A stretch of DNA of 64,000 nt from an uncultured Candidatus Saccharibacteria bacterium. Its GTDB lineage: Bacteria; Patescibacteriota; Minisyncoccia; UBA6257; 2-01-FULL-56-20. Below the pieces are notes generated by a model that was given only the letters and a program-made list of their open reading frames with translations, did no database searches and was not told where the DNA came from. Shown here one piece after another: positions 4,448 through 30,871 of the stretch. Both the position numbers and the translations under genes were made by a program. Every line of letters begins with the position of its first letter. Position 1 is the stretch's first letter. The DNA lies in NCBI GenBank assembly GCA_964361095.1, contig CAYHZA010000004.1, positions 2,236-66,235 on the forward strand, read 5' to 3'.

Positions 4448-5074
4448 ATGACCAAAAAGGAACTTTTGGAACAATTAGAAAAAGAAATAGCCGCGGATGT
4501 CTCGCTTCAGCTTCGGGAGTCAAATTTGGTTTTTGGCGAGGGGAATCCCGATTGCGATGTTTTGTTTATTGGTGAAGCCCCGGGATTTCACGAAAACCAA
4601 CTGAAGCGTCCCTTCGTCGGACGTGGCGGCCAACTGCTCGATCAATGCATCACAATGATCGGCTGGAAGCGCGAGGATGTTTACATTACAAATATTGTGA
4701 AGCGCCGCCCGCCGGAGAATCGCGACCCCTTGCCGGAGGAAATTGAATCCTATAAGCCCTACCTCACGCGGCAGATAGAAATTATCGATCCCAAGGTAAT
4801 CGTACCCCTCGGACGTTTCGCGATGAATTATTTTCTGCCGGAGGCAAAGATTTCGCGTGATCAGGGCACGGCCTTTCGCGTGGACGGGCGTCTTGTGGTG
4901 CCGGTTTTCCATCCCGCCGCCGCGCTCCGAGGAACGGGGGTCTTAAATGAGTTCAAAGAAAGCTTCAAAAAGCTTCCGAAGATTATTTCAGGAGATGGTT
5001 TGCCCAAAGAAATCGCACCGGCGTTTCCCGCATCGCGCAAGGATAATCCTCCGCCCCAGGCGAAGCTTTTTTGA
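4448..5074 (+). CDS. uracil-DNA glycosylase, family 4
   Basis: GEGNPDCDVLFIGEAPGFHENQLKRPFVGRGGQLL matches the family-4 UDG motifs (GE-G-x-x-A-x-x-M-x-V-GEAPG, PFVG-x-AG-x-LL). HPAA near the C-terminus matches the H-P-S motif region. Confidence 0.85.
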   Translation: MTKKELLEQLEKEIAADVSLQLRESNLVFGEGNPDCDVLFIGEAPGFHENQLKRPFVGRGGQLLDQCITMIGWKREDVYITNIVKRRPPENRDPLPEEIESYKPYLTRQIEIIDPKVIVPLGRFAMNYFLPEAKISRDQGTAFRVDGRLVVPVFHPAAALRGTGVLNEFKESFKKLPKIISGDGLPKEIAPAFPASRKDNPPPQAKLF

Positions 5075-13078: not shown

Positions 13079-13398
13079 GGGGATGACCGGCTTCGATGGA
13101 AATGCGTCATGAACCGGCGAGCCGAGCGCAGTCTCGTAAATCCTGCAAAATTATTAACTGCCAACTCTAATCGAGTTACAGCTCCAGCGTTCGCTTACGC
13201 GTAACGCAGGACATCGGCTAACTTGTGTCTCTTAGGTTAAATACTGGTGTAATATAAGGAGGCTCGCCAAGCACGTTTCGCTTCGTGATGTGCTCGGCTA
13301 AAAATAGCGAAGCAAAATTCTTGATCCAATCAAGATACGCTCGTAGATAGTTCATCGATAGTATTTTCAGACGGCGGTTCAATTCCGCCCATCTCCAC
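13079..13398 (+). ncRNA. ssrA: tmRNA (SsrA)
   Basis: 5' GGGGATGACCGGCTTCGATGG compares with E. coli GGGGCTGATTCTGGATTCGACGG. The 3' end GACGGCGGTTCAATTCCGCCCATCTCCAC is a tRNA-like T-arm and acceptor. An internal tag ORF GCC AAC ... GCG TAA at 13160-13204 encodes ANSNRVTAPAFAYA*, preceded by CUCGUAAA as in E. coli. smpB lies immediately downstream on the opposite strand. Confidence 0.8.
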
Positions 13399-14177: not shown

Positions 14178-15866
14178 ATGCGTGAAAAAATAGCTCAAAT
14201 ACTGAAGAAAAGTGGCCTTTCCGATGCGGATGTAATCGTTTCCGAACGGGAAAATTTTGGGCACTACTCGACGGCGATCGCCATGCGGCTCGCAAAGACG
14301 GAGCACAAAAACCCAATTGAGCTCGCGGAAGAATTTACCCGCCGCATCCGCGAAAGGGCGCCCGCTCATTTTTTTGAAAAAGTGGAAGTGGCGCCGCCAG
14401 GGTTTATTAATTTTTGGATCAATCGCAAAGTTTTGGAGAGTGAATTTCAGAAAATATACAAAGCAAAGAACGTTTACGGAAAAAGTAGCATAGGCAAAAA
14501 TAAAAAAGTTATCGTCGAATATTCCCAGCCGAATATCGCGAAACCGCTTCACGTGGGACATCTTCGCACTACGGTACTTGGCGACGCGCTCGCGAATATG
14601 CACGAACTCGCGGGGTATAAGGTTGTTCGGTGGAATTATCTCGGTGACTGGGGAACGCAGTTCGGAAAAGTTATTGCCGCGTATAAATTATGGGGCAACC
14701 GTGAAGCGTTGCGGAAAAATCCGATCCGCGCGCTCGGGGAACTCTACGCGCGCTTTCACGGTGAAATGAAAGCGCGTCCCGAACTCGAGGAGCAAGGCAG
14801 GGAAGAGTTCAAAAAACTTGAAACCGGAGATAAAGAGAATAAAAAATTGTGGGAATGGTTCAAAAAAGAATCTGTTAAAAAACTGAATGCTCTCTACGCA
14901 ATTCTCGATATAAAATTTGACGTGTGGATCGGCGAGAGTTTTTTCGAGAAAGAACTGCGCCCTCTGGTTGCCGAATTGCTTAAGAAGAATATCGCTAAGA
15001 GAAGCGAGGGGTCTGTTATTGTGTCATTCGGAAACGACGTGCTTCCTCCCGCGCTTATTCAGAAGTCGGATGGCGCGAGCTTATATCTGACGCGTGATAT
15101 CGCGAATTTACGTTATCGTTTAAAGAAGTATAAGCCTCATAAAATTTTGTACGTGGTAGGAAACGAACAGTCGCTTCACTTTGAACAACTTTTCTCCGTG
15201 GCGCGACTTTTGCATATGACAGGTTCCGAGCTCGCGCACGTAAAATACGGATTGGTGCTCGCCGAGGGAGGTAAAAAATTCGCGAGTCGCGAGGGAAGAG
15301 CGGTATTTTTGGAAGATATGTTACGGAAATCAATTACATTGGCGGAGAAGATCGTTTCGGAAAAGAACCCCGCGCTTTCCGCGAGAGAAAAAGAGCGAGT
15401 TGCTCACGCGGTCGGCGTCGGTGCCCTGAAGTACGTAAATCTCAAGGAAAATCGACATTCGGACATAGTTTTTGACTGGGAGCGCATGCTTGATTTCTCG
15501 GGAGACAGTTCCCCTTATCTTCAATATACCTACGCGCGCCTTCAGGGAATTTTACGCAAGGCGGGCAATGTTCGATCATTAGGTGCGCCGGTTTTTGAAA
15601 GTTCCTTAGAACTTCAGATCGTGCGGAAACTCTTGGAATTTCCGGAGGTCATCAAAGAAGGAGTTCTTGGGTATGCCGTAAACGGTCTTACGGCCTATCT
15701 TTATGAACTTGCGGTGCTCGCGAATAAATTTTATGAGATTACGCCCATTATAAAGGATGAGAATCGCGCCCGCCGCGCCTCGCGCCTCGCGCTTGTCGGT
15801 ATGGTGTCCGTGGTTTTAAAGAAGGGACTTGGTCTTTTGGGCATAAAAGTAGTACCTCAAATTTAG
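14178..15866 (+). CDS. argS: arginine--tRNA ligase
   Basis: HIGH-type motif KPLHVGHLRTTVLGDALAN and overall ArgRS architecture at 562 aa. Confidence 0.9.
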   Translation: MREKIAQILKKSGLSDADVIVSERENFGHYSTAIAMRLAKTEHKNPIELAEEFTRRIRERAPAHFFEKVEVAPPGFINFWINRKVLESEFQKIYKAKNVYGKSSIGKNKKVIVEYSQPNIAKPLHVGHLRTTVLGDALANMHELAGYKVVRWNYLGDWGTQFGKVIAAYKLWGNREALRKNPIRALGELYARFHGEMKARPELEEQGREEFKKLETGDKENKKLWEWFKKESVKKLNALYAILDIKFDVWIGESFFEKELRPLVAELLKKNIAKRSEGSVIVSFGNDVLPPALIQKSDGASLYLTRDIANLRYRLKKYKPHKILYVVGNEQSLHFEQLFSVARLLHMTGSELAHVKYGLVLAEGGKKFASREGRAVFLEDMLRKSITLAEKIVSEKNPALSAREKERVAHAVGVGALKYVNLKENRHSDIVFDWERMLDFSGDSSPYLQYTYARLQGILRKAGNVRSLGAPVFESSLELQIVRKLLEFPEVIKEGVLGYAVNGLTAYLYELAVLANKFYEITPIIKDENRARRASRLALVGMVSVVLKKGLGLLGIKVVPQI

Positions 15867-15896
15867 CGTTCGCGATTCACGTTCGCGCTTAATACT

Positions 15897-18800
15897 TTGC
15901 GCCGATTGTCATCATGGCGCGTTTCTTTTATGATGAAAAGACACATGGCTTCTAAAAAAGGTGCTCGCAGAGATTTTTTCGGCGGAGAGCTCAATCTTCC
16001 CGCGCTCGAGAATAAAGTATTGGAATTCTGGCGCGACAATGCGATTTTCGAAAAAAGTCTCGCGTTGCGCAAAGGAAAAAAACGATTCGTATTCTACGAG
16101 GGCCCTCCTACGGCGAACGGCAGGCCGGGCATTCACCACGTGCTCGCGCGCGCGTTCAAGGACATTATTCTTCGCTATAAAACGATGCAGGGATTTTTCG
16201 TGCCGAGAAAAGGCGGGTGGGATACACACGGACTTCCCGTGGAACTTGAAGTCGAAAAAAAGCTCGGCCTGAAATCTAAAAAAGATATCGAGAAATTCGG
16301 CATCGCCGAGTTTAACAGGAAATGCAGAGAATCGGTCTGGCAGTACAAGGACGATTGGGAGAAATTGACCGAGCGGATGGGATTCTGGCTTGATTTCAAG
16401 GATCCCTATATCACTTACGAAACCGATTACATCGAAACGCTCTGGTGGATCATCAAAGAAGTTGCAAAGAAAAAACTTTTATATAAAGGTCACAAAGTGC
16501 TTCCTTGGTGCACGCGGTGCGGCACGTCACTTTCCTCACACGAATTGGGCCAGCCGGGCGCGTATCGTGAAGTTGTCGACAATTCGGTATACGTAAAATT
16601 CAAATTGAAACCGAATAATGCAAGGCGTGGTGTTGTGCAGCTAGGAAGCCACGAGTTTTCAAATATTAGTATTTTGTCTTGGACAACGACTCCCTGGACA
16701 TTGCCGGGAAATGTTGCGCTTGCGGTAGGGGAAAACATTCGGTATTCGGTTCGACATACAGGAAGCGAGGCATTTATTATGGCAGAAGATTCTCCATTGG
16801 GGCGTACTTTTGTTGGCAATATTGAAGAAACTGTACGCGGGAAGGATCTTGTTGGGTTAGAATACGAACCGCTTTTTGACATTCCAACTCTTCAAAACGA
16901 AAAATCTCATCGTATTTACGCCGCCGATTTTGTAACTACCAATGAAGGTACGGGTGTGGTGCATACGGCGGTGATGTACGGGGAAGACGACTATCAATTG
17001 GGCATAAAAGTGGGATTGCCCCAGCATCATACGGTCGACGAGATTGGGAAATTTACGGGCGAGGTTTCGGGTCTTGCGGGGTTGTATGTCAAAGCAAAGG
17101 AAGCGGAGGAGAAAATTTTTAAGCACCTTGATAAAAACGGAAATCTTTTTAAAATCGAACCATACAAACACGAGTACCCTCACTGCTGGCGATGTAATAC
17201 GCCGCTTCTCTACTACGCGCGGACGTCGTGGTTTGTGGCGATGACGAAAATCCGCGCCGCGCTCTTGAAGAATAATCAGGATATTAACTGGATTCCCGAA
17301 CATATAAAAACAGGCCGGTTCGGCGAGTGGTTGAGGGACATCAAGGACTGGAACTTCTCCCGCGAGCGTTATTGGGGTACGCCGCTTCCGATTTGGGAGT
17401 GCGCGAAATGCGGCACGCACGAAACAATCGGCGGCACCGAGGAGTTACACCGGCATTTGGGAGGCGCGCGGAATGAGTACTTCGTTATGCGTCACGGACA
17501 ATCGGAGACGCAGATAAAAAAGGTTATTGATTCCGGAGAAAAGCCTTACCATTTGACGACAATCGGAAGAGATCAAGTACGGCGCACGGCGTCAAAGCTT
17601 AGGGGCAAAATCGATTTGATTATTGCTTCGGACATTTTGCGTACCAAAGAAACCGCGGGAATCGTCGCGGAGGCGCTGGGGGCGAAGAAAATTATTTTTG
17701 ATCCGCGGTTGAGGGAAATCCGTGCCGGCATTTTTGCCGGATGCCACGCGGCAGAATATCATCGAGCATTCCCGACGCATCAGTCACGTTTTGAGGGCCG
17801 TCCCGAAGGCGGGGAGTCGCTCCGCGATTTGCGCGCGCGTCTGTGGGATTTTATGCGCGACATCGAAAAAAAATATTCCGGGAAAAAGATCCTTTTAATA
17901 AGTCATGAGTATCCGATCTGGATGCTTTTCCATGCGGCGGAGGGATGGAGTGAGAAAAAGGCGATCGCGGCAAAGCACGGTACGGAAGAGGATTTTATAA
18001 ACGTTGCCGAGGTGCGGAAGCTCGGGTTTAAAGCCGGACCGCGTAACGAGCTTGGGGAGTATGATTTACATCGCCCTTATATTGATGAGGTACGTTTTTC
18101 ATGCGGTAAGTGTAAAGGAGAAATGCGCCGCGTAAAAGAGTTGGCCGATGCCTGGTTTGATTCGGGTTCAATGCCGTTTGCAGAGGAGCACTATCCTTTC
18201 GGAAAACAGAAGCTTGTTTTTCCCGCCGATTATATTTCCGAAGGGATTGATCAGACGCGGGGATGGTTCTATACGCTTCTTGCCGTTGCTACACTTTTGG
18301 GCAAGGGGACTTCCTATAAGAACGTGGTGTGTTTGGGACTCATAAACGATAAGACCGGACAGAAGATGTCGAAGTCTAAGGGAAATATCGTAGACCCATG
18401 GGCGATGGCCGAAAAGCACGGGATGGACGCGGTAAGATGGTATTTTTACACCTTGAATCCTCCCGGTGAAATGAAGAATTTTGACGAGGTGGAGATCGCG
18501 AAGACATCCCGAAGATTCCACTCGATTCTCTATAACTCTTTTGTTTTTTATGAAACATATGCGGCACCGTCGGGTAAGCCGGTTGCGCGAGAGAGCAAAA
18601 ACGTGCTTGACCGATGGATTCTCACGCGATTGAACGAAACGATTTTTGAAACAAGCAAAGCACTTGATACGTACGCGATTCGTGAGGCGGCGCTTGCGAT
18701 CGAGGCATTCACCGACGATCTTTCGCGTTGGTATATTCGTCGCTCGCGGAGGCGTCTTCAAAAACCGGAGAGTACGATTGATTATGAAAATGCTTCGCGG

Positions 18801-19526
18801 ACGCTACGGCACGTACTCCTCGAAACCGCAAAGCTCGCCGCGCCGTTTTCTCCGTTTTTTGCGGAGGCCCTCTACGCGCGTTTTGAGGGTACTTCGGTCC
18901 ATTGTGTCGATTGGCCAACGACAAGTGACAAGCGACAAGTGTCCAGCGACAAGAAGTTACTTCGGGATATGGCGGAGGTACGTCGATTCGCGAGCGTCGG
19001 TCTTGCGAAGCGCGCCGAAGCGGGGATAAAGGTGCGCCAGCCGCTGGCTTCGCTGAAAATCTCGAAACAATCTCGAACGGCTAATTCTCGAATATTCGCG
19101 AATGATTCGAGATTATATGTTCGGGATTTATTAGCGATTCTCGCGGACGAGGTGAATGTGAAAGAGATAATTTTTGACTCGAAATTAAATCTGCCAACTG
19201 GCCCTGATGGTACCGTCGGGGCCGGCGGAGAAGTTGAGTTGGATACGGCAATCACACCGGAGCTTAAAGAGGAGGGAATTCTGCGCGAACTTGTGCGCGC
19301 GGTGCAGGATTTACGTCAGGCGGCGCGTTTTCGGCCGCAGGATAAGATAATGTTTATGATCGATGTGCCCATAGGATTGCGTGACATCGTTATAAAAAAC
19401 GAGATTGTGTTCAAAAAAGAAATTGGCGCAAAGCAGATCGAGTATAAGAAATCAGAGAAGTTTGACGCGGAGATAAATACAAAAATAGATAACCAAGCCA
19501 TCTGGCTTGGGGTGCGGAAGATTTAA
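15897..19526 (+). CDS. ileS: isoleucine--tRNA ligase carrying an inserted histidine-phosphatase (PGAM-fold) domain
   Basis: PPTANGRPGIHHV (HIGH), WTTTPWTLP, KMSKSKGN, C-x-x-C zinc motifs and an IleRS anticodon-binding C-terminus. The probable true start is near 15945 (MASKK...LNLP). A ~190-aa insert between the CAKCG region and DLHRPYIDEV contains the motifs VMRHGQSETQ, SDILRTKETA and LISHEYP. Confidence 0.9.
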   Translation: MRRLSSWRVSFMMKRHMASKKGARRDFFGGELNLPALENKVLEFWRDNAIFEKSLALRKGKKRFVFYEGPPTANGRPGIHHVLARAFKDIILRYKTMQGFFVPRKGGWDTHGLPVELEVEKKLGLKSKKDIEKFGIAEFNRKCRESVWQYKDDWEKLTERMGFWLDFKDPYITYETDYIETLWWIIKEVAKKKLLYKGHKVLPWCTRCGTSLSSHELGQPGAYREVVDNSVYVKFKLKPNNARRGVVQLGSHEFSNISILSWTTTPWTLPGNVALAVGENIRYSVRHTGSEAFIMAEDSPLGRTFVGNIEETVRGKDLVGLEYEPLFDIPTLQNEKSHRIYAADFVTTNEGTGVVHTAVMYGEDDYQLGIKVGLPQHHTVDEIGKFTGEVSGLAGLYVKAKEAEEKIFKHLDKNGNLFKIEPYKHEYPHCWRCNTPLLYYARTSWFVAMTKIRAALLKNNQDINWIPEHIKTGRFGEWLRDIKDWNFSRERYWGTPLPIWECAKCGTHETIGGTEELHRHLGGARNEYFVMRHGQSETQIKKVIDSGEKPYHLTTIGRDQVRRTASKLRGKIDLIIASDILRTKETAGIVAEALGAKKIIFDPRLREIRAGIFAGCHAAEYHRAFPTHQSRFEGRPEGGESLRDLRARLWDFMRDIEKKYSGKKILLISHEYPIWMLFHAAEGWSEKKAIAAKHGTEEDFINVAEVRKLGFKAGPRNELGEYDLHRPYIDEVRFSCGKCKGEMRRVKELADAWFDSGSMPFAEEHYPFGKQKLVFPADYISEGIDQTRGWFYTLLAVATLLGKGTSYKNVVCLGLINDKTGQKMSKSKGNIVDPWAMAEKHGMDAVRWYFYTLNPPGEMKNFDEVEIAKTSRRFHSILYNSFVFYETYAAPSGKPVARESKNVLDRWILTRLNETIFETSKALDTYAIREAALAIEAFTDDLSRWYIRRSRRRLQKPESTIDYENASRTLRHVLLETAKLAAPFSPFFAEALYARFEGTSVHCVDWPTTSDKRQVSSDKKLLRDMAEVRRFASVGLAKRAEAGIKVRQPLASLKISKQSRTANSRIFANDSRLYVRDLLAILADEVNVKEIIFDSKLNLPTGPDGTVGAGGEVELDTAITPELKEEGILRELVRAVQDLRQAARFRPQDKIMFMIDVPIGLRDIVIKNEIVFKKEIGAKQIEYKKSEKFDAEINTKIDNQAIWLGVRKI

Positions 19527-19641
19527 CGAGATAAAACCCCGTTAGATCCCGAAAGCTTCAATTTCCGTACCGGAAGCAAAAGAAATGTTTCTTCGTAGCT
19601 CGACAGATGCTGTACCCCCCTGGATCTAACGGGGTAAAAAA

Positions 19642-19680
19642 ATAGCGCACGATTAATTGTGCGCTATGATATTTTTGTTT
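19642..19680. terminator. bidirectional terminator (ileS / HD-domain gene)
   Basis: TAGCGCAC-gattaatt-GTGCGCTA flanked by T-runs on both strands. Confidence 0.65.
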
Positions 19681-19703
19681 TTGGCAGTTCCTCCTCTTAT
19701 GAG

Positions 19704-20912
19704 TTACCGCGATGGGTGAACTCCTTGGTGCACGTCGTCGATCTCGGGAGCCGAGCCGCCTTTCACGAATCTTTGATCGAACTCCGTTGCTTCGGGCATG
19801 TCCTTGTCTTTCTCATTGAACGGAGCCGACGAGAAACAGTCAAATTGCGGATAGGGCTTCGTGAAGACGAAGCGATGGGCCGTGTAACGTGGGATTCGGA
19901 GTGCGACCATGGGAGCGATCTTATACTCGGCTTGCGGACCACAACGTTTTCCTTCGGAGTCGACGGAGTAGGTGAGGACGACGCCTTCGGCATCTCGGAA
20001 GAGAAACACCTCTTCTTTATTCCGGTGGTAATGGTTGCCGAGTGGCTTCTCGATGCCCGATTTTCCGTCGAAGCATTGGACCGAGCCGTTTGCAAAGTCA
20101 TACTCGTAAATGTCCCGCCGGCTGTCCGAACTCACTCGTTCGAGTCGTCCTGCTTCGATACTACTCCTTGTGACTTTCCAGTAGTAATTTCCGAGCGCTT
20201 GTCGGATGTCGTCCTCGACGCGGTTCGCGTCACCAGTTGCTTCCGCTATCTCGTTGCCGAGTTCACGGATGTAGTTCACAAAAAAGAGCAGTCGGCCGTG
20301 ATTTACGAGCGCCCGTGCCTTCTCCGAGGGCAACATCCCGTACCACTCGAGAATCCGGAAGAGATCATTGTAACAACTCCGGAGCTTTCCTTCGTCGGTT
20401 GAGGAGTAGCCGAAGGGATACTGGGGATCGTAGGGAAGCAAGTCGTTTCCGCGGAAGGCGGCTGATGCCATGATTCCCAGTGGGCCCATGCGGTCGAGCT
20501 TGTCGGCAATCCGAAGCGCCGTGAGGAGCGTCGAATCGCTTGGATCGTCATCCTTCTTGGGGTGCTGGAGTACGGCGTCAACGATGCGAATCTTTGTTTC
20601 TTCTTCAAATGGACTGTCCAAGAGAAATCCGAGACAGATTGCCCCGAGGGAGATGCCCGTCCGTTGGATGCGGGTCTTGGTTTCGGGATTTCGGTCCACG
20701 TTGTGGAGCCAGACGGCTGCCACGTACTCGTCGGAGTTGAAGTTGAGGATGGTAGCGATCTTCGGTCCCATCACTTCCATTCTCTCCACGTGGGTTACGT
20801 CATGACCTCCAAGGCACGCGGGCGGCGTGTAGCGAGGACGGAGCTGATTCTTGAGATGCGCGAGGAACGTTTGTCGTGGGGTGAGCCTTGTGTTTGAAAC
20901 TGACACTGGCAA
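19704..20912 (-). CDS. HD-domain phosphohydrolase with uncharacterised ~200-aa C-terminal region
   Basis: GGHDVTHVERM, AAVWLHNVD and RIADKLDRMG give the H...HD...H...D pattern of the HD superfamily. The gene sits in a visibly more GC-rich, CG-codon-rich patch than its neighbours. Confidence 0.6.
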   Translation of the reverse strand: MPVSVSNTRLTPRQTFLAHLKNQLRPRYTPPACLGGHDVTHVERMEVMGPKIATILNFNSDEYVAAVWLHNVDRNPETKTRIQRTGISLGAICLGFLLDSPFEEETKIRIVDAVLQHPKKDDDPSDSTLLTALRIADKLDRMGPLGIMASAAFRGNDLLPYDPQYPFGYSSTDEGKLRSCYNDLFRILEWYGMLPSEKARALVNHGRLLFFVNYIRELGNEIAEATGDANRVEDDIRQALGNYYWKVTRSSIEAGRLERVSSDSRRDIYEYDFANGSVQCFDGKSGIEKPLGNHYHRNKEEVFLFRDAEGVVLTYSVDSEGKRCGPQAEYKIAPMVALRIPRYTAHRFVFTKPYPQFDCFSSAPFNEKDKDMPEATEFDQRFVKGGSAPEIDDVHQGVHPSR

Positions 20913-21021
20913 CCTCCTCTCTTATCTTACGGTTGGTTGTCAAATTGGTAAGTGGAAACTACACCAAAAACTTTACCCATTATACATCGACAAAAGTTTT
21001 TTGTCAAATTCAACCCCAGGG

Positions 21022-22062
21022 TTAGAGCGAAATCCCGATCTTCTTTTTGATTTCGCCGATTTTTCGAGCAGCAACTTTACCGGCTTTCTTGGAGCCGGAG
21101 GTCAATATAGTTTTCAAAGCGGATGATTTTCCCGCGAGAGCTTTCTTCTTTTTGCGATAGTCGGCGAAGTGGAGGATGACGAGTTCCGCGAGATCGGTTT
21201 TGAATTCGGAGTACGTTTTTCCCGTATATTTTTTCTCGAGTTTTTGCATGTTCTCGCCGCTTATCGAAGAGTAAATTTTCAAAAGATTGCTTATCGCGGG
21301 TTTTTTCTCTTCGTCGTATTTTATTTCGTTGCCGGAGTCGGTTACGGCACGTTTGATTTTCTCGCGAACAATCTCGGGCGCGTCTTCGAGAAAGAGGCAT
21401 CCCGCGGGCATGGACTTCGACATTTTTTTAGCTGGATCGTTCAGGCTCATCACGCGGGGCGTCGCGGTATGGAGCGAGTTCGGTTCCGAAAACGTTTTTC
21501 CGAATTTCGCGTTGAATTTACGCGCAAGTGTGCGCGTGAGTTCAAGGTGTTGGTCCTGGTCGTCGCCTACAGGTACGAATTTCGCATCATAGAGAAGAAT
21601 GTCGGCGGCCATGAGGACTGGATATTCGGCCAGCCCAAAATTCGATGCCTCAACAACTTCTTCGAATTTTTCTTTTGTGATTTTTTCTCTTTCGCCTGGT
21701 TTCAGGGCTTGCAATACTTTTTCTTTGAACGCTGTCATGCGGAGTAACTCGCTTACGGGCGTAAGTGTGCTCAAAATCCACTTGAGCTCCTGGAGAGGTT
21801 CAATCTGCGATTGCTGAAATATAATTGATTTTTTTGGATCAAGTCCTATGGCTAAAAAGTCAGCTGCAAGACTTATGGTGTTCGTGGTTAAGTCTTTTGC
21901 GGTAGGATTTTCTGTAAGCGCATGCAGGTCCGCAATAAAAAAATAACACTGGTATTTGCCGGAGTTCTGCAGATCAACAAAGTTTTTTAACGCGCCCAGG
22001 TAATTTCCGATATGGAGTTTTCCTGTGGGTTGTATGCCGGAGACGAGAACGGGTTTTGCCAT
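21022..22062 (-). CDS. trpS: tryptophan--tRNA ligase
   Basis: MAKPVLVSGIQPTGKLHIGNYLGA (HIGH-type motif) and KKMSKSMP (KMSKS). Confidence 0.9.
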   Translation of the reverse strand: MAKPVLVSGIQPTGKLHIGNYLGALKNFVDLQNSGKYQCYFFIADLHALTENPTAKDLTTNTISLAADFLAIGLDPKKSIIFQQSQIEPLQELKWILSTLTPVSELLRMTAFKEKVLQALKPGEREKITKEKFEEVVEASNFGLAEYPVLMAADILLYDAKFVPVGDDQDQHLELTRTLARKFNAKFGKTFSEPNSLHTATPRVMSLNDPAKKMSKSMPAGCLFLEDAPEIVREKIKRAVTDSGNEIKYDEEKKPAISNLLKIYSSISGENMQKLEKKYTGKTYSEFKTDLAELVILHFADYRKKKKALAGKSSALKTILTSGSKKAGKVAARKIGEIKKKIGISL

Positions 22063-23831
22063 TAGATCTCGATGACGACCGATAATATCATTGGTCGCCG
22101 TCGGGTTTTATTATACAGGAATTGGCCGATTTGGTCTCGGATCAAGGTTTTTAAGTAGTCGTTTTCGGGAGATCGGTTATTCGGAAGACGCGAGAAGAGT
22201 CCCCGGACGCGTTTTCTGATGTCTTCGAGGACGCCCTGATTTTCCTTAAGGTGGATAAAACCGCGGGAGATGATGTCGGGGTTTTTAAGGAGTCCGCCTT
22301 TGTTGCGATCAATGGTCATGATGATTACCACCATTCCTTCCTTCGCGAGAGTGAGCCGATCTTGGAGGACGATTTCTTTTACGTCGCCAACGCCCAGACC
22401 GTCCACCATGACATAGAAGGCGGGAACGGTTTCTTTGGTTACCAGGAGGCTATTCGGCGTAAGTTCCGCGACTTGGCCATTATCCATCATGATGACGCTG
22501 TCGCGTTTCAGCCCTGCTTCAGCGGCAAGTTTCTGATAGCTTTTTCTTTTGAAGTAATATCCGTGGATGGGTATGATGAATTTTGGCTTCACGCGTTGGA
22601 GTACCAATTTTATATCCTCAGCGTGTACGTGTCCGCTTGCGTGAATGTCGAGAAGTTTTGAGTTGTAGATTTCGTCGACTTGGCGAGCGATATTATCTTG
22701 AAGCGATTGCACGCTTCGTTCGTTGCCCGGAACGACGGATGAAGAGAAAACGACGGTGTCGGTTTGTTTTAACCGTACGACACGGTGCTCTCCGTTTACG
22801 ATGCGCATGAGTCCCGCGTTCGCTTCTCCTTGGGCGCCGGTTGTAAGAATAATAATTTTGTCGTCTCTGTGTTTATTGATATCTTCCAGCGGAATCACAT
22901 GATCTTTCCGTTCTTTGAGATAGCCCAATGACTTCGCAATTTCGAGGTTGTCCTTCATGGAGCGTCCGTTGACGGCTATTTTTCGTCCGAGTCGGTCGGC
23001 GATTTTAATAATTTCAAGAAGCCGGTCAACAAGCGATGCGAACGTCGCGATAATAATGCGACCCTTCGCATTTTTGATGAGCATTTCGAGATTTGCCTCG
23101 ACAGTTTCTTCTGATGGTACGTGACCCGCGATATCCGCGTTCGTGCTGTCCATAAACGCCGTGTGAATTCCTTTTTTACCGACGCGATCGAAGATTTCGA
23201 GATGTTGAGGCACTCCTTCTTTTGTGTAATCTATGCGGAAGTCTCCGAAGCTCGCCATGTTGCCCGCGGGCGTTTCAAGGAGAAATCCATACGCCTGAGG
23301 AATAGTGTGTTCCACTACGAAAAATTCCGCCGTGAAATTTTCCGAAATCTTCACGCGATCGCCGTCTTTTACGGTTATAAATTTAAGCTTAGGCGCGTTG
23401 GTGAACTCGGCATGCCGTTTTTCCACGATGGCCCGAGTGAATTCCGACGTGTATATAATCGGATTTCCCAGTTTTTCGATAAGATAATGAATGGCGGCGA
23501 TGTGATCGTAATGGCCGTGCGTCAAGATGATCGCTTGGATATTCTTTTTCTTTGCTTCAAGATAGGTGACGTTCGGAATAATATAGTCAACGCCGGGCGT
23601 CGACTCTTCGGGGAATTGAATGCCGACATCAACAATAACGATTTCGTTTTTGTATTCGAAAAACGAGCAATTGCGGCCGATTTCTTCAAGACCCCCTAAG
23701 GGAATAAAGCGGACGGCGTTTTCCGATCCGGTCGGTCCTACCGGGCGCGTTGTTTTTCGGACACGAGAATCCATATCGGGTGTTCGATGTGTTTTTGGCA
23801 TTTCATGCCGTGTGAATGTTTTTTTTATCAT
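22062..23831 (-). CDS. rnj: ribonuclease J (metallo-beta-lactamase RNase)
   Basis: ILTHGHYDHIAAIHYL (HxHxDH), a beta-CASP region and an RNase J C-terminal domain at 589 aa. Confidence 0.9.
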   Translation of the reverse strand: MIKKTFTRHEMPKTHRTPDMDSRVRKTTRPVGPTGSENAVRFIPLGGLEEIGRNCSFFEYKNEIVIVDVGIQFPEESTPGVDYIIPNVTYLEAKKKNIQAIILTHGHYDHIAAIHYLIEKLGNPIIYTSEFTRAIVEKRHAEFTNAPKLKFITVKDGDRVKISENFTAEFFVVEHTIPQAYGFLLETPAGNMASFGDFRIDYTKEGVPQHLEIFDRVGKKGIHTAFMDSTNADIAGHVPSEETVEANLEMLIKNAKGRIIIATFASLVDRLLEIIKIADRLGRKIAVNGRSMKDNLEIAKSLGYLKERKDHVIPLEDINKHRDDKIIILTTGAQGEANAGLMRIVNGEHRVVRLKQTDTVVFSSSVVPGNERSVQSLQDNIARQVDEIYNSKLLDIHASGHVHAEDIKLVLQRVKPKFIIPIHGYYFKRKSYQKLAAEAGLKRDSVIMMDNGQVAELTPNSLLVTKETVPAFYVMVDGLGVGDVKEIVLQDRLTLAKEGMVVIIMTIDRNKGGLLKNPDIISRGFIHLKENQGVLEDIRKRVRGLFSRLPNNRSPENDYLKTLIRDQIGQFLYNKTRRRPMILSVVIEI

Positions 23832-24104: not shown

Positions 24105-24191
24105 TGGTGCCGAGGGGGAGATTTGAACTCCCACGCTCTTGCGAGCACAGCGCTCTGAACGCTGCGTGTCTGCCGGTTTCACCACCTCGGC
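24105..24191 (-). tRNA. tRNA-Leu (anticodon CAG), CCA encoded
   Basis: Minus-strand sequence GCCGAGGTGGTGAAACCGGCAGACACGCAGCGTTCAGAGCGCTGTGCTCGCAAGAGCGTGGGAGTTCAAATCTCCCCCTCGGCACCA. It has a 7-bp acceptor stem, anticodon loop UUCAGAG, a long variable arm and a GTTCAAATC T-loop. Confidence 0.85.
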
Positions 24192-24250: not shown

Positions 24251-25237
24251 CTATCCCGCTTTCTTCATTAAGCTTTTCAGCGTGTCGATGATCTTCGTTT
24301 CTTTAGGATCAACGCTGTTGTAGCGGGCGAGAAAATACGTGGTCCAGTCGGCAAGCATGGTCATTTCCCAAATGTTTTCGAGGCGGCTTTGTCCGGTAAG
24401 TTTTATATTAAAAGTTTTTACGCCTTGTTTTTTTGCGAGTGCTTCCGTGATGCTGAATTTTTTTTGAAGTCGTGGGTGGCGCGTGTCGTGTATAAAAAGC
24501 GCGGCGGCAGGATAGGTTAACTTATCGAAGCTTACAATTTCGTTGTGATTCATTTCCGGCAAGACATTCGCGAATGCGAGCATCTTTGCGGTTTCGTTGC
24601 ATTTTATTTTCCAAATATAGCCTGCTACTCCGTATTCTTGATCGGTGTAAATGAGAATGACTCGTTTTTGGAGTTGGTCCGCAAGCGCTTTGCCTTTTGT
24701 TTTATAGTGTTGTGGGTTGAGATGCGTAAATGATTTCGATTGGAGAATGTGTCCTGAAGAACGGAGAATTTTAATTAAGCTATAGAACATACTACCAGCT
24801 GATTGACGTGGTGTCAAGGTGTCGGGTCGGAAAGTCACTAACGGTACGTGATGTTGCCGGGCAAGTTTTTCGAGTTCTCCTCCTGTCGCAATTGCCGCAA
24901 TGCGCCGGTTCGGATCCTTCTTTTTAAAAATAGTTTTAAAGCCTGAGAGGGTTTCTTCGGTATTACCCGAAAAAGAACAAAATATGAAAAGTGTCCTTTC
25001 GATTTTTATAGGAGAAGGGGGTAGGCCATAGTCTTTCCATACTTCGATTTTCGCCCGAAGATTAAGCTCCTGCGCGGTTGTGGAGATCACGTCGCCGGCG
25101 ATGCCCGATCCTCCCATGCCGATAATCACAATACGCGCCGGTTTGAAGCGCGCGAGACGGTCGAGATCGAATCCCGAAAGCCCCTCCTCGTTTAGTTGGG
25201 TATTGAACGCTTTAATATTCTTTTCGTAATCGTCCAT
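24251..25237 (-). CDS. bifunctional phosphoglucose/phosphomannose isomerase (SIS domain)
   Basis: IVIIGMGGSGIAGD plus SIS-domain architecture. The start was chosen at the internal Met that overlaps the upstream stop. Confidence 0.75.
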   Translation of the reverse strand: MDDYEKNIKAFNTQLNEEGLSGFDLDRLARFKPARIVIIGMGGSGIAGDVISTTAQELNLRAKIEVWKDYGLPPSPIKIERTLFIFCSFSGNTEETLSGFKTIFKKKDPNRRIAAIATGGELEKLARQHHVPLVTFRPDTLTPRQSAGSMFYSLIKILRSSGHILQSKSFTHLNPQHYKTKGKALADQLQKRVILIYTDQEYGVAGYIWKIKCNETAKMLAFANVLPEMNHNEIVSFDKLTYPAAALFIHDTRHPRLQKKFSITEALAKKQGVKTFNIKLTGQSRLENIWEMTMLADWTTYFLARYNSVDPKETKIIDTLKSLMKKAG

Positions 25238-26889
25238 TATTTTAAGATTCTTCTTGTTTTTAAATACCAAAACGGGGTGGTGCGCAGATGATCCGCGGGT
25301 TCGTTAATCAGTTGACCGGGCACGCCTTTCAGATCTTTGTCGGTTATCAGAAGATAGTGCGGAGAATAAAGAAAAATAGCAGGGTAATCGCTTGCGATGA
25401 CGTCTTGGAATTCATAGAACTCTTTTTGTCTCGTTTCAAAATCAAAGTTTTGTCTGATTGTCTCAATAAGACGATCCGCTTCCTTATTACTATAAAGGCT
25501 TAAGTTGAGGCCGGGATAAAAACGTTCCGAGGAGTGCCAGAACGCGTAGGGCTCGAATCCGAGATTTAAAATATTTCCGAAGAGAAGTACCTGGTACTCT
25601 CGATTTTTAATGACCGGATCGGTGATTTGATCGAGGGGTAATTCCCGAAGCGTTGTTTGTACTCCAAGCTTTGTCCATTGGGTTTGGATAAGCCGTGCGG
25701 TTTCTTTAAGGAAAAAAACGTCCGGAACCGTTATGGATACGGCAAGTTCGACGGTTGCGCTTTTTATTTTCTTTTCGCGGATTCCGCTTGTATTGAGAAT
25801 CCACCCCTCATCGTCAAGGAGTTGATTCGCTAATACGATTGACGTTGACGCATTTTGAAGTTTTGGATTAAAGTAGGGCGAAATTGAGGGGAGGGGACCA
25901 TAAGCAACTTCCGCTTGTCCGGAAAATACTTTTTGTATGATCTCATTTTTATCTATTGCAAGGGTGAGCGCTTCACGAACCGATGCTTCTTTGAGCGCGA
26001 TATTCTGGCTTTGGTTCAAAAAGAGCGCGTAGTAATTCGGTAACGCGAACGAAGAGCTGGCGTAGGGACGTTTAATGCCATCTAAATCTTCCGGGTCAAC
26101 TCCGGGAAGACCATCAATACGCCCAAGGTTAAACGCTTGGATCAAGTCCTCTTTTTTTGAGAACAATTTTATGTTCAGGCGGTCAATGAAAGGACGCTCG
26201 CTAAAATATTTTGTGTTGGCCTTAAGGTGATAGTCCGTGATAAAGCCGTCGGATTTTATCTCGTATGATTCAAAGCGATAAGGTCCGCTCCCGATCGGTT
26301 TCAGGTTGAAATTTGAGATACGCCAGTTCGCGACGGGAATATCAAGGAACAAATGCCGAGGAAGGATATAGAGATTTTTAAGATAACCCTCGAAGAATGC
26401 ATAGGGCGTGCCTACATTGAATTGGAGTTCAAGTTCGCTTAATCGTTGCACCGCGACGCCTTGCCAATTTTCATGAAGGGGCGAAAGACTGTCAGGGTCT
26501 TGAATTTTCTGAATCGTAAAGGCGATATCATCGCTCGTGAGTTTTTGACCGTCGTGCCAAAAGAGATTTTCTTTGAGGCGGACCTTCCATGCGCGTCCTC
26601 CGTTTTCCGCTTCTATTTTTGAAGCGACGTCGCCGATATTGCTAAAGATAAGGCGTACGAGGGCCTTATCGATGTCGGTTTTCGCGATCACGGGATTAAT
26701 AAATGAAGGCTGATGGAGAAATCCTTCCGTGAAACTTCCGCCGTACCCGGGAACAACTTTTGTGCTCGTATTTACGATGGTCGCCGCAAGCAACGCGAAA
26801 CTTATCAGCGATCCAAGAGCTGCGACGAGAAAGATTGCTTGTTCGGTCCGATTCAGCGCCAAAAATATTTTTTTAAGCGTGGTGAACAT
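25237..26889 (-). CDS. ABC-transporter solute-binding protein, family 5 (orphan, N-terminal membrane anchor)
   Basis: 550 aa with an N-terminal TM helix and an SBP_bac_5-like size and composition. No permease or ATPase gene is adjacent. Confidence 0.55.
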   Translation of the reverse strand: MFTTLKKIFLALNRTEQAIFLVAALGSLISFALLAATIVNTSTKVVPGYGGSFTEGFLHQPSFINPVIAKTDIDKALVRLIFSNIGDVASKIEAENGGRAWKVRLKENLFWHDGQKLTSDDIAFTIQKIQDPDSLSPLHENWQGVAVQRLSELELQFNVGTPYAFFEGYLKNLYILPRHLFLDIPVANWRISNFNLKPIGSGPYRFESYEIKSDGFITDYHLKANTKYFSERPFIDRLNIKLFSKKEDLIQAFNLGRIDGLPGVDPEDLDGIKRPYASSSFALPNYYALFLNQSQNIALKEASVREALTLAIDKNEIIQKVFSGQAEVAYGPLPSISPYFNPKLQNASTSIVLANQLLDDEGWILNTSGIREKKIKSATVELAVSITVPDVFFLKETARLIQTQWTKLGVQTTLRELPLDQITDPVIKNREYQVLLFGNILNLGFEPYAFWHSSERFYPGLNLSLYSNKEADRLIETIRQNFDFETRQKEFYEFQDVIASDYPAIFLYSPHYLLITDKDLKGVPGQLINEPADHLRTTPFWYLKTRRILK

Positions 26890-27590: not shown

Positions 27591-29126
27591 TTACAAAAGA
27601 TCGCGCAAAAGATTTCGCCCCGTCATTTCTTTCGGAACGGGAATTTCCATGAGGGTGAGTATCGTTGGCGCGATATCGGCGAGGATGCCGATCGGTTGTC
27701 GGATGTTGTTTTGATTGTAGAATTTTTTATTTTTAAATTCAGGAGCGATAACGTGAAAAGGAACGGGGTTTGGATCGTGCTGGGTTTCGGAGCTTCCCGT
27801 CATTGGATTCAGCAGCTCTTCGGCGTTCCCGTGGTCAGAGGTGATGACGAGTATGGTTTCCGTATTTTCAATACCTTTTATGATTCTTCCGATTTCTTTG
27901 TCGATAGCCTTTACCGCTTCTATGGTGGCATCATAGTTTCCGGTATGCGCGATGGTGTCGGGATTGGCGTAATTTGCGAGAATAAAATCGAATGACTGAT
28001 TTTCAATTGCCTGTAGGATACGGTCGGTGATTGCGGGTGCCATCATCTGCGGGTGCTCATATACCTTAGGAGTGCTTAACGAGGGGATCAACACGCGGTA
28101 TTCATTTTTAAATGGGGGTTCTTCATAGCCGTTGAAAAAGTAGGTGACATGCGCGTATTTGTAACTTTCAGCGACACGCAGTTGGGTTTTGCCCGCTTCG
28201 CTTACGACGCGTCCAAGGGGCTGCACCACCTTTTCGGGGGGATAGGCCACCGGAACCGTGAAGCGGTCCTCGTAGTGGGTCATGGTGGCAATATAAACAT
28301 TCGTAAGTTTTTTCGTTGGAAACTTGTCGAACGAAGGTACGATAAACGCTTCGGCGAGCTGTCGAATGCTGTCTTCACGAAAATTGAAAAAAAGAATTGA
28401 TTCGTTATCGCGAACAACCCCTTCTTTCATAAAGCGGACTGGCGGAAGAAATTCTTCGGTGGTGCCTTGTTTGTAGTGCGCCTCAATGATCGCCGGAAGT
28501 TCCGTGATATTTTGGGTACGTATTTCTCCTTCGTTCGTGATCGCCTCATACGCTTTTTGAGTGAGTGACCAATTTCCTTCCCGATCCATCGCATAGTAGC
28601 GACCGACGAGTGTCGCGATCTTTTCTTTCGGAATTGCCCGTAGAAATGACTCAAGGGTTTGAGGGGGACTATCTTTGCCGTCGCTGAAGAGATGGAGTTT
28701 TACGGGAACTTGTTCCTTCTCTCCCATGTTTATTAATGCCTCAAGGTGTTCCAGTGAAGCATGTACGTTTCCCTTGCTTAAAAGACCCAGAAGATTTACT
28801 GCTGACGAATTCTTTTTCGCGTGAAGGAACGCGTCTTTTATCGCTTTATTCTCAAAGAATGTGCCGTCTCGCACGGCGAGCGTGAGACGCGGAAAATATT
28901 GATAGAGAACCTTTCCCGCTCCTATGGTGAGGTGCCCTACTTCGCTGTTTCCGACTTCTCCCCAAGGAAGGCCGACGCTGATTCCGGAGGCCTGCAGGCT
29001 TGTTGCAGGGTAGTTCTCTTTAAGAAATTGGAAGTTTTCGGGTTTTACGACATAGAGGGGATTTGATTCGTCATCGCGACCTATTCCCCAGCCGTCCAAT
29101 ATCAACAAAACAAGAGTTTTTTTCAT
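27591..29126 (-). CDS. gpmI: 2,3-bisphosphoglycerate-independent phosphoglycerate mutase
   Basis: ILDGWGIG...SDHGNAEE and full-length iPGM at 511 aa. Confidence 0.9.
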   Translation of the reverse strand: MKKTLVLLILDGWGIGRDDESNPLYVVKPENFQFLKENYPATSLQASGISVGLPWGEVGNSEVGHLTIGAGKVLYQYFPRLTLAVRDGTFFENKAIKDAFLHAKKNSSAVNLLGLLSKGNVHASLEHLEALINMGEKEQVPVKLHLFSDGKDSPPQTLESFLRAIPKEKIATLVGRYYAMDREGNWSLTQKAYEAITNEGEIRTQNITELPAIIEAHYKQGTTEEFLPPVRFMKEGVVRDNESILFFNFREDSIRQLAEAFIVPSFDKFPTKKLTNVYIATMTHYEDRFTVPVAYPPEKVVQPLGRVVSEAGKTQLRVAESYKYAHVTYFFNGYEEPPFKNEYRVLIPSLSTPKVYEHPQMMAPAITDRILQAIENQSFDFILANYANPDTIAHTGNYDATIEAVKAIDKEIGRIIKGIENTETILVITSDHGNAEELLNPMTGSSETQHDPNPVPFHVIAPEFKNKKFYNQNNIRQPIGILADIAPTILTLMEIPVPKEMTGRNLLRDLL

Positions 29127-29347: not shown

Positions 29348-30871
29348 ATGGCATTTGGAATTACGTGGCTTGTAGGCGGCGCTGTTTTGGGATTTGCGCT
29401 CGGGTATTTTGCGCGCAGGTATCTTCTCGGCTCGCACGCTAGCTCGGTTGAGCAAAAAATTAAATTACAGCTTGAGGAAGCAGAGCGAAAAGCAAAAGAA
29501 ATTATTCTCGAAGGAGAGAAGAAAGGGACGGAGCTTTTGACCGAGATAACCCAGCAAGGAAAAGAACGCCAGGCTCAACTTGCTCATTTAGAAAGTCGTG
29601 TGTTGGCTCGGGAAGATGCTCTCGACAAACGATTTAACGCCGTAAGCGAAGAGGAGGCATCATTTAAAGTGAAGGTGGAAGAGGTGAAACACAAAGAAGA
29701 AGAGCTCCAGGCGGCGCGTGAGGATATAGAAGGACGGCTTGAAAAAGTAAGCGGACTTACGCGCGATGCGGCTCGTGGTGAACTTTTTCACCAGATTCGA
29801 GAAACATATCGTGAAGATTTGGCCGCAACGCTCCAAAAACTAAATCAAGAACGGCGTGATGAGATAGAAAAAAAATCAGTTGAAATTTTAGCCACGGCTC
29901 TTCAGCGGTATGCGCGTTCGCATGTTTCGGAAATGACCACGACGGCTTTTCCTCTTAACGATGAGGAGCTTAAAGGAAAGATCATAGGTCGCGAGGGACG
30001 GAACATCAGAGCGCTTGAGCGCGCGACTGGCGTTGAATTTGTAATCGACGAAACTCCCGACAGTATCGTGATTTCTTCATTCGATCCTTACCGTCGCGAA
30101 GTAGCTCGAATGGCGCTTGAAAAACTTATCAAAGATGGCCGCATTCAACCCGCAAAGATCGAAGAGAAAGTCGAAGAGGCTCGACAAGAACTCAATAAGC
30201 GTATTTATGAAGTTGGCGAAGCGGCCGCTATGGAAATAGGAGTGTATGATCTTCCTAAAGAAATCATCCAACTTCTTGGACGTCTTCATTTCCGCACAAG
30301 TTATGGGCAGAATGTTTTGACGCACTCCTTGGAAATGGCTCACCTTGCCGGAATGCTTGCCGCGGAACTTGGGTTGAACGTTGACGTTGCAAAACGCGGC
30401 GCGCTTCTTCATGACATCGGGAAAGCCATCGACCATGAGGTTGAGGGAACTCACGTTGATTTGGGGATGAAGATTTTGAAGAAATATGGCGTAAACGAAG
30501 CAGTTATCCAGGCAATGCAGTCGCATCACGAGGATTATCCCTACGCGACTTCTGAGGCATATGTGATAACCGCGGTTGACGTGCTCTCCGCCGGACGCCC
30601 GGGAGCACGCCGCGGAACGCTTGAAAACTACATTAAACGATTGGGAGACCTGGAGAAGATCGCGAAAGAATTTCCGGGAGTAAAGAACGCCTATGCCATA
30701 TCTGCCGGCCGGGAATTACGGATATTCGTTCTTCCCGAAAAGATCGATGATTTCGGAGCCCTTGAAATGGCGCGCGAAGTTGCGAATCGGATACAGTCCG
30801 AGTTAAAATATCCCGGTGAGATCAAGGTGAACGTTATTCGAGAGATGCGCGCGGTAGAGTATGCCCGGTAA
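29348..30871 (+). CDS. rny: ribonuclease Y
   Basis: N-terminal TM helix, coiled coil, KH domain (IIGREGRNIRALERATGVEF) and HD domain (HSLEMAHLAGMLAAELG...LLHDIGK). Confidence 0.9.
   Translation: MAFGITWLVGGAVLGFALGYFARRYLLGSHASSVEQKIKLQLEEAERKAKEIILEGEKKGTELLTEITQQGKERQAQLAHLESRVLAREDALDKRFNAVSEEEASFKVKVEEVKHKEEELQAAREDIEGRLEKVSGLTRDAARGELFHQIRETYREDLAATLQKLNQERRDEIEKKSVEILATALQRYARSHVSEMTTTAFPLNDEELKGKIIGREGRNIRALERATGVEFVIDETPDSIVISSFDPYRREVARMALEKLIKDGRIQPAKIEEKVEEARQELNKRIYEVGEAAAMEIGVYDLPKEIIQLLGRLHFRTSYGQNVLTHSLEMAHLAGMLAAELGLNVDVAKRGALLHDIGKAIDHEVEGTHVDLGMKILKKYGVNEAVIQAMQSHHEDYPYATSEAYVITAVDVLSAGRPGARRGTLENYIKRLGDLEKIAKEFPGVKNAYAISAGRELRIFVLPEKIDDFGALEMAREVANRIQSELKYPGEIKVNVIREMRAVEYAR

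Follow-up and report, generated by a model that had tools for sequence, protein, structure and literature searches.

A histidine-phosphatase domain nested in the CP3 loop of a patescibacterial isoleucyl-tRNA synthetase, and its stand-alone counterpart between argS and ileS

The ileS gene in the 64,000-nucleotide stretch analysed herein (contig CAYHZA010000004.1, positions 2,236 to 66,235 of the forward strand, from an uncultured Candidatus Saccharibacteria bacterium; hereafter, the window) encodes an isoleucyl-tRNA synthetase (IleRS) that carries a histidine-phosphatase (His_Phos) domain nested within its third connective peptide (CP3). In the relatives surveyed, an intact His_Phos domain was found to be genetically locked to IleRS, and also to arginyl-tRNA synthetase (ArgRS) and TsaC, either as a neighbouring gene or as a nested domain. 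These observations are probably best explained by a catalytically competent branch-1 phosphatase that moved into the CP3 loop of IleRS and serves as a dedicated partner of the synthetase, a partnership suggested by the sister lineages, in which the phosphatase gene is wedged between argS and ileS. No description of an IleRS with a nested histidine phosphatase was found in the literature, including recent papers on IleRS and on the Candidate Phyla Radiation (CPR), and the initial annotation of the window was thus borne out in regarding a synthetase-phosphatase fusion as undescribed. The sequences have been public for years under generic names ("class I tRNA ligase family protein" or a generic IleRS), and what is new here is the finding of stand-alone orthologs in a conserved argS-His_Phos-ileS operon.

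The synthetase and its insert

The features on which the argument rests are as follows (aa, amino acids; Tth, T. thermophilus IleRS).

14178-15866, plus strand: argS, arginyl-tRNA synthetase (Pfam Arg_tRNA_synt_N, tRNA-synt_1d and DALR_1)
15897-19526, plus strand: ileS, type-2 IleRS with nested His_Phos domain, a single open reading frame (ORF) of 1209 aa from a TTG at 15897
16128-16139, plus strand: class-I signature position, with GIHH (aa 78-81) replacing HxGH; GIHH in 99 of 121 orthologs
16680-16712, plus strand: intact Thr-rich motif of the CP1 editing domain, WTTTPWTLPGN (aa 262-272); invariant or nearly so in 121 orthologs
17394-17414, plus strand: first half of the CP3 zinc knuckle, W-E-C502-A-K-C505-G (aa 500-506), equivalent to Tth C461/C464
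17451-18056, plus strand: insert, aa 519-720, delimited by the alignment gap to 1ILE and comprising a short N-terminal linker, the histidine-phosphatase domain (about aa 526-710) and a 12-aa return linker
17481-17966, plus strand: Pfam His_Phos_1 (PF00300) match, aa 529-690; 113.7 bits against a cut-off of 21.7, E = 1.1e-32
17490-17498, plus strand: RHG motif, R532-H533-G534, with H533 as the predicted phospho-accepting nucleophile; Arg and His in 121 of 121 orthologs, Gly in 115 of 121
17640-17642, plus strand: R582, second phosphate-binding Arg; invariant (121/121)
17814-17816, plus strand: E640, predicted general acid/base; invariant (121/121)
17904-17906, plus strand: H670, second catalytic His (SHEYP); invariant (121/121)
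18063-18119, plus strand: resumption of the host with DLHRPYID (aa 723-730), then the second half of the zinc knuckle, S-C736-G-K-C739-K-G, equivalent to Tth 487-504
18363-18377, plus strand: intact KMSKS motif (aa 823-827), with invariant K/M/K columns

The ileS product scored 858.6 bits against the NCBIfam model TIGR00392 (cut-off, 621.4), which identified it as an IleRS, and its best solved relatives were T. thermophilus IleRS (1ILE; E = 4e-238) and P. megaterium IleRS2, the latter also matched by Foldseek (8c9d; E from about 1e-88 to 5e-88). Translation probably starts not at the TTG (15897) but at one of three in-frame ATGs, located at 15930, 15933 and 15945. Like the type-2 enzymes of known structure (1ILE; 8C8U-8C9D), the host retained KMSKS, the CP1 editing motifs, the C-terminal DUF5915 (Pfam) and a CP3 zinc knuckle of the Tth kind, whereas it differed from them in its GXHH signature and in having about 200 aa in place of a CP3 loop of about 10 residues; no domain inside CP3 was found among the solved or described IleRS. 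G/AXHH is a functional form of the signature in IleRS2, and the motif swap gives millimolar mupirocin resistance (PMC10485003). An association between GXHH and the insert was considered and rejected, as GXHH and HYGH were each found both with and without it. The insert-bearing gene was the sole ileS seen in the window, and considering its intact motifs and the host dN/dS of 0.05-0.22, aminoacylation would be retained despite the insert.

The second zinc site of T. thermophilus IleRS lies in CP3, a connective peptide of variable structure that follows CP2 and precedes the second half of the Rossmann fold (PMC7191050). The yeast IleRS-tRNA study mentions CP3 solely as an element of the structure and describes few contacts of the acceptor stem with the catalytic domain (PMC11685878). 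The cysteines that correspond to this site, C502/C505 and C736/C739, flank the insert, and all four were invariant in the 121 orthologs together with H725, P727 and D730. The alignment with 1ILE stopped at Tth residue 477 and restarted at 487, which left query residues from about 519 to 720 as extra sequence, and the spacing from WECAKCG to DLHRPYID amounted to 216 residues here and 215-235 in other carriers, as against 23-28 in insert-less IleRS. Given that the insert-less relatives were 948-1010 aa long, the initial annotation had rightly judged the 1209-aa ORF to exceed a canonical IleRS by about 200 aa. The long spacer that it had described was also found, at 216 residues (a net insert of about 200 aa) instead of its estimate of about 190, and the span that it had assigned, 17440-18090, did contain the insert within generous limits; codon 515 starts at 17439, and translation from 17440 is one base out of frame and meets seven stops. 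The domain termini agreed with those of the stand-alone orthologs described below ("N.YF.LRHG ... GE.R.L"), and P715, R716 and G720 were conserved in the return linker.

The domain had initially been recognized from three motifs, VMRHGQSE (aa 530-537, nt 17484-17507), SDILRTKETA (aa 578-587, nt 17628-17657) and LISHEYP (aa 667-673, nt 17895-17915), all of which were present as described, and the profile search and structure prediction that had been proposed as checks both agreed with it: the PF00300 match was nested between two tRNA-synt_1 segments in the Pfam scan of the 1209-aa protein, and the AlphaFold2 models of aa 17-1209 (pLDDT 90.3, pTM 0.86, both insert junctions confident too) and of the insert alone (pLDDT 93.2) predicted a confident alpha/beta PGM-like His_Phos fold within IleRS. 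R648 was likewise invariant in the 121 full-length orthologs. The Arg and His of the RHG motif were kept in all 68 insert-bearing species representatives of the survey below, the multi-copy variants retained them in each copy, and the sole changes in the catalytic set across these 68 were one E-to-D at E640 and one G-to-A. From its profile match, predicted fold and residues, the insert can be assigned to branch 1 of the histidine phosphatase superfamily (PF00300), and it is apparently complete and catalytically competent as a phosphatase, in line with the initial view that its Arg-His-Gly, second Arg, Glu and second His were intact.

As for the kind of phosphatase, the insert reached the equivalog cut-off of none of the NCBIfam histidine-phosphatase models. 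The models for phosphoglycerate mutases stayed far below their thresholds (dPGM_arch, 75.8 vs 225; GpmB, 51.8 vs 261; PRK01295, 36.4 vs 316), as did those for CobC (ribazole_cobC, 64.5 vs 162.9) and PspA (48.4 vs 350). The domain that had been called PGAM-type can therefore keep that name for its predicted fold, whereas its scores argue that it is not a phosphoglycerate mutase enzyme.

Conservation and the stand-alone form

Both PF00133 and PF00300 were detected in 120 of the 120 best full-length homologs (54-63% identical, 1140-1271 aa, on contigs of up to 913 kb), which came from Paceibacterota, Parcubacteria, Liptonbacteria and Minisyncoccia. In a GTDB survey of Patescibacteria (Paceibacteria/Minisyncoccia) with one genome per species, the insert was present in 68 of 80 ileS loci (L001-L080; L and P numbers denote loci and proteins, respectively), the lineages including Liptonbacteria, Jorgensenbacteria, Niyogibacteria, Giovannonibacteria, Yanofskybacteria, Sungbacteria and Paceibacter. 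The ortholog survey suggested at the outset thus found the insert to be widespread, and the concern raised with it, a chimeric assembly, did not hold up. Indeed, that the insert is an assembly chimera or an intein-like mobile element seems next to impossible: the unusual length and a slightly raised local GC content (0.51-0.54) might hint at it, but the same architecture recurs in hundreds of independent assemblies, including the 120 best homologs, the 68 GTDB species and 29 further metagenome loci, and no Hint splicing or homing-endonuclease domain was matched by Pfam in the 1209-aa protein at E<0.01. The matching selection on insert and host, described next, speaks against it as well. Some short matches (P0006, P0018 and P0010) were considered as split genes and set aside, as they look like frameshifted or truncated fragments.

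For close pairs, the Nei-Gojobori dN/dS was 0.05-0.24 in the insert and 0.05-0.22 in the host, and the mean pairwise identities were 45% and 50%, respectively. Purifying selection on the insert is thus strong and equals that on the host synthetase. In about 14 insert-bearing species, all four zinc cysteines of CP3 were lost while the phosphatase residues stayed intact, so that the active site of the guest is better conserved than the host motif that it interrupts. These species fall in two separate groups (L044, L048, L050, L051, L054, L055, L058, L060-L063 and L066-L068).

The same evidence makes it very improbable that the domain has decayed as an enzyme and persists as a structural spacer or as a surface that binds tRNA. 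E640 and R648 were missing from one of the copies in a three-copy protein, and with a median pI of 8.8 the embedded domains are basic when compared with some acidic stand-alone relatives (5.6-6.0). However, R532, H533, R582, E640 and H670 were invariant across about 190 sequences, down to 36% identity, and were better kept than the zinc ligands of the host, which is itself just as basic (pI 9.0). The pI was accordingly dropped as a sign of RNA binding, the values for insert and host being uninformative.

An exhaustive search with the insert as query returned 920 relatives at E<=1e-10, the best 146 of which were examined as representatives. These included 51 stand-alone proteins of about 190 aa, which were 39-47% identical to the insert and shared its motif blocks in the alignment. 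The gene for one of them (P0192) ends 2 nt upstream of the gene for a 972-aa IleRS that has no insert and whose CP3 zinc knuckle is uninterrupted, and a second (P0193) likewise precedes an insert-less ileS; the order argS-His_Phos-ileS was seen at L086-L088. A metagenome scan with a stand-alone profile built from 11 sequences then returned 80 loci, of which 50 were stand-alone, 29 embedded in IleRS and one fused to ArgRS. Among the 46 stand-alone loci with enough flanking sequence, ileS started within 200 nt downstream on the same strand in 42 and argS ended within 200 nt upstream in 40, often with overlapping stop and start codons. In the GTDB loci, argS lay directly upstream of ileS in 41 of 80, and in insert-bearing genomes argS abuts ileS with no gene between, as in the window, where argS ends at 15866 and ileS begins at 15897.

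If the stand-alone and embedded forms are functionally equivalent, they should be distributed in a complementary manner, and this was what we found: among 173 loci, the copies were exclusively embedded or fused in 104 and exclusively short in 61, and the two forms never occurred together. The insert thus appears, from these alignments and gene orders, to be the fused form of the phosphatase gene in the argS-ileS operon of sister lineages. A neighbour-joining (NJ) tree of 148 domain copies was unresolved, with stand-alone and embedded copies interleaved. In one lineage, the stand-alone phosphatase gene has no ileS after it and is separated from argS by a conserved 51-aa ORF, the C-terminal half of which is hydrophobic (L081, 2818-2973; L082, 448-603).

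Further hosts, insertion sites and genomic surroundings

The 146 representatives contained 93 fused proteins, comprising 90 IleRS, one valyl-tRNA synthetase (ValRS), one ArgRS and one TsaC. Three sites are used within IleRS, namely CP3 (site A), the HYPF...FPADY loop immediately before FPADY (site B; P0223), and the position between the stem-contact fold and the anticodon-binding domain (site C; P0279, P0292 and P0223), and P0292 was found in six assemblies of up to 1.06 Mb. Tandem His_Phos arrays also occur in CP3 (P0229 and P0301). The catalytic set was intact in all copies of these multi-site and multi-copy proteins except for the one copy of the three-copy protein mentioned above.

The fusion to the C-terminus of ArgRS was found in two independent cases (P0202, equal to L083/L084, and L109), and it is the expected product of stop-codon loss in an argS-phosphatase pair; in the unresolved NJ domain tree, the ArgRS-fused copy was nearest to the stand-alone genes. 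The ValRS with four copies is tentative, since it was seen on a single contig of 2x coverage with an ORF that ends inside the fourth copy. TsaC/Sua5 is the threonylcarbamoyl-AMP synthase of tRNA t6A, and its His_Phos fusion was represented by four clusters (52-65% identical) on seven contigs, with the CCA-adding enzyme, tRNA-guanine transglycosylase (TGT), a queuosine-salvage gene and TruD as neighbours. A 261-aa protein that overlaps the stop codon of the TsaC-His_Phos gene (L171, 3292-4077; L085, 2144-2929) gave only a faint, sub-threshold match to a PD-(D/E)XK nuclease. Patescibacterial TsaC/Sua5 (P0324-P0436; P0423, P0427 and P0432) was on the whole a hub of domain fusions, the commonest partner being the MGMT/Ogt DNA-binding domain and the others, across lineages, being TruB, a 2H cyclic phosphodiesterase/LigT-like domain, methylpurine glycosylase, NUDIX, GNAT and His_Phos. 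On a Marsarchaeota contig, one His_Phos copy was divergently adjacent to an insert-less ileS (L077, 3811-4419).

These hosts bear on the improbable reading that a housekeeping metabolic phosphatase or mutase of the PGM, PspA or CobC type merely hitch-hikes on an essential, constitutively expressed gene. The insert does have weak similarity to the dPGM_arch, CobC, GpmB and PspA models, and gene fusion does occur in reduced genomes, but the equivalog scores all fell far short (75.8 vs 225 for dPGM_arch), and hitch-hiking leaves unexplained the near-universal order of argS, phosphatase and ileS, the three insertion sites within IleRS and the repeated choice of only tRNA-related hosts in the 93 fused proteins. 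Moreover, the window encodes its own iPGM (iPGM_N and Metalloenzyme; 27591-29126, minus strand), 8 kb from ileS, so that the insert is not needed for glycolysis, and moonlighting of a glycolytic phosphoglycerate mutase was rejected. From the genomic context, a tRNA-linked role is more likely than a moonlighting metabolic one.

With regard to the surroundings, the order argS, ileS, a variable segment, trpS (minus strand) and the RNase J gene (minus strand) was conserved across Paceibacteria (window 14178-23831; L001-L068), trpS and rnj being found downstream of ileS in 32 loci. The variable segment of the window holds a 402-aa ORF (19704-20912, minus strand) with an HD-like "HDVTH...HNVDR" pattern, for which no Pfam match was obtained even at E<0.05; its GC content is 0.55-0.58 compared with about 0.46-0.50 around it, homologs occupy the same place in only three related loci (L002, L030 and L053), and it may be a recently acquired gene. 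A tmRNA gene (13079-13398, plus strand; tag peptide ANSNRVTAPAFAYA) lies upstream of argS, and tRNA-Leu(CAG) (24105-24191, minus strand) lies between the genes for RNase J and PGI (24251-25270, minus strand). The left end of the window carries a HaeII-type restriction endonuclease (326-1396, plus strand; Pfam RE_HaeII, 420 bits) and a UDG-superfamily glycosylase (4448-5074, plus strand). RNase Y (29348-30871, plus strand) is followed by a very long surface polysaccharide cluster (about 30926-63760, annotated in part) that encodes O-antigen ligase-like proteins, GDP-mannose dehydratase, several epimerases, glycosyltransferases, a flippase and a sugar transferase; transaldolase is encoded at 54758-55474 (plus strand).

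Proposed mechanism, substrate and implications

By analogy with the superfamily, R532, R582 and H670 would hold a phosphomonoester for attack by H533 to give a phospho-histidine intermediate, with E640 protonating the leaving group and water then releasing the phosphate. Nesting would fix this phosphatase at a 1:1 stoichiometry on the surface of the synthetase and would leave the HIGH-type, KMSKS and editing motifs undisturbed. Given that the contexts of the clade are tRNA-centred, namely IleRS, ArgRS, possibly ValRS, and TsaC near cca, tgt and truD, we infer that the substrate is a phosphorylated species met in tRNA charging or maturation.

Known proteins provide only partial parallels. The insert was 21-24% identical to the small branch-1 phosphatases PspA/PSP1 (4IJ5), GpgP (6S2Q), PhoE (1H2E), CobC (6E4B) and the riboflavin-pathway HFP (9MMH), which are free-standing and act on small metabolites, whereas members of the present clade are tied to enzymes that charge or modify tRNA, through nesting, fusion or operon linkage. 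A precedent for an IleRS with an additional catalytic domain is ileS_w_GNAT (NF040702), yet its extra domain is a GNAT and it belongs to another enzyme subfamily, the protein here scoring 318 bits where the cut-off is 1999. Among NCBIfam models, the Rv2228c-type RNase H/acid phosphatase (NF005567), in which a CobC-like His_Phos domain is fused to a nucleic-acid enzyme, matched the insert best (90.6 bits); that fusion, however, is terminal and its partner is RNase H, and the insert stayed well under the 326-bit cut-off. The His_Phos domain of tau55/Tfc7 in TFIIIC (2YN0, 6YJ6) is also a precedent, but it is a much more distant relative in a eukaryotic transcription factor. None of these three is nested in a synthetase. 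Lastly, the RNA end-healing enzymes, namely the T4/Clostridium Pnkp phosphatase, ThpR/LigT 2H proteins and the HD domain of CCA-adding enzymes, open or remove 2',3'-terminal phosphates; their HAD, metallophosphoesterase, 2H and HD folds are unrelated to the His_Phos fold of the insert, and an end-healing role would be proposed here by functional analogy only.

As the leading specific proposal, albeit a doubtful one, the domain might remove a 2'- or 3'-terminal phosphate from the tRNA acceptor end and thereby free the A76 2'-OH for the class-I enzyme. The proposal is suggested by the hosts, which are tRNA enzymes, by the requirement of class-I enzymes for the A76 2'-OH, and by the tolerance of several sites and copies, as would suit a substrate that is flexible and reaches far, like the CCA end. 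In addition, a 2H cyclic phosphodiesterase domain sits on patescibacterial TsaC of sister lineages exactly where His_Phos does in others. Somewhat less likely still is its broader form, in which the module would be a 2'/3'-terminal phosphomonoesterase of tRNA quality control and repair, integral to class-Ia synthetases (IleRS and ArgRS) and TsaC in the ultra-small Patescibacteria.

Several observations weigh against this line of thought. The nearest relatives in both structure and sequence (PspA, GpgP, PhoE, CobC and the riboflavin-pathway phosphatase) use small molecules, and no His_Phos member acting on RNA ends was found in the literature. The TsaC fusion coexists in at least one lineage with an HD-domain CCA-adding enzyme that could already heal 3' ends, and the ValRS case relies on the one low-coverage contig. 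The link between phosphatase and synthetase is not universal, since a Woesearchaeota genome has three clade copies in a row (a two-domain protein and a third) with no synthetase nearby (L174-L177, 6001-7862). In an NJ tree of the hosts without support values, insert-less IleRS such as that of Kaiserbacteria (L073), which leaves no space for a separate phosphatase gene, were placed among insert-bearing clades, which would imply that the module can be lost; secondary loss of the insert and two independent losses of the zinc knuckle are tentative readings of this tree.

The main alternative for the substrate is a nucleotide or pyrophosphate by-product, the domain then being a small-molecule hydrolase of pyrophosphate (PPi), AMP or another nucleoside monophosphate that pulls or cleans up the activation reaction. 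We consider this rather unlikely. IleRS, ArgRS, ValRS and TsaC do all turn ATP into an acyl-adenylate and PPi, the close structural relatives are all small-molecule phosphatases, several of which (CobC and the riboflavin-pathway enzyme among them) act on ribosyl- or ribityl-5'-phosphates, and the free-standing archaeal arrays with no synthetase nearby would also fit. On the other hand, a tether brings little kinetic gain for a freely diffusing small molecule, the acidic E537 and E671 beside the pocket disfavour a polyanion such as PPi, destruction of AMP would be wasteful for nucleotide-salvaging organisms, and we know of no pyrophosphatase among the branch-1 histidine phosphatases. A protein phosphatase acting in cis on the synthetase or on a translation factor, for example to reverse inhibition by a toxin kinase, seems improbable, as no kinase or phosphosite is known for the IleRS or ArgRS of these organisms, the domain resembles the PspA/PhoE/CobC type more closely than it does SixA or PGAM5, and the TsaC fusion has no obvious fit with it.

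Few enzymes have been studied as thoroughly as the aminoacyl-tRNA synthetases, whose CP1 editing, CP2 and CP3 insertions are textbook material. Against this background, the conserved presence within CP3 of another enzyme, unrelated and apparently active, in a major class of the CPR is of interest, and the operon, the multi-site and multi-copy forms, and the ArgRS and TsaC fusions together imply an undescribed phosphatase reaction in tRNA charging or maturation. The stand-alone phosphatase with its insert-less IleRS and the nested form represent natural split and fused versions of one system, and annotation would gain as well, because the current names hide the phosphatase domain. If the tRNA-repair proposal were true, the module would provide the first RNA substrate for the histidine-phosphatase superfamily and a third catalytic activity for aminoacyl-tRNA synthetases, after synthesis and editing. 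The finding also bears on how symbionts with minimal genomes maintain their small tRNA pools.

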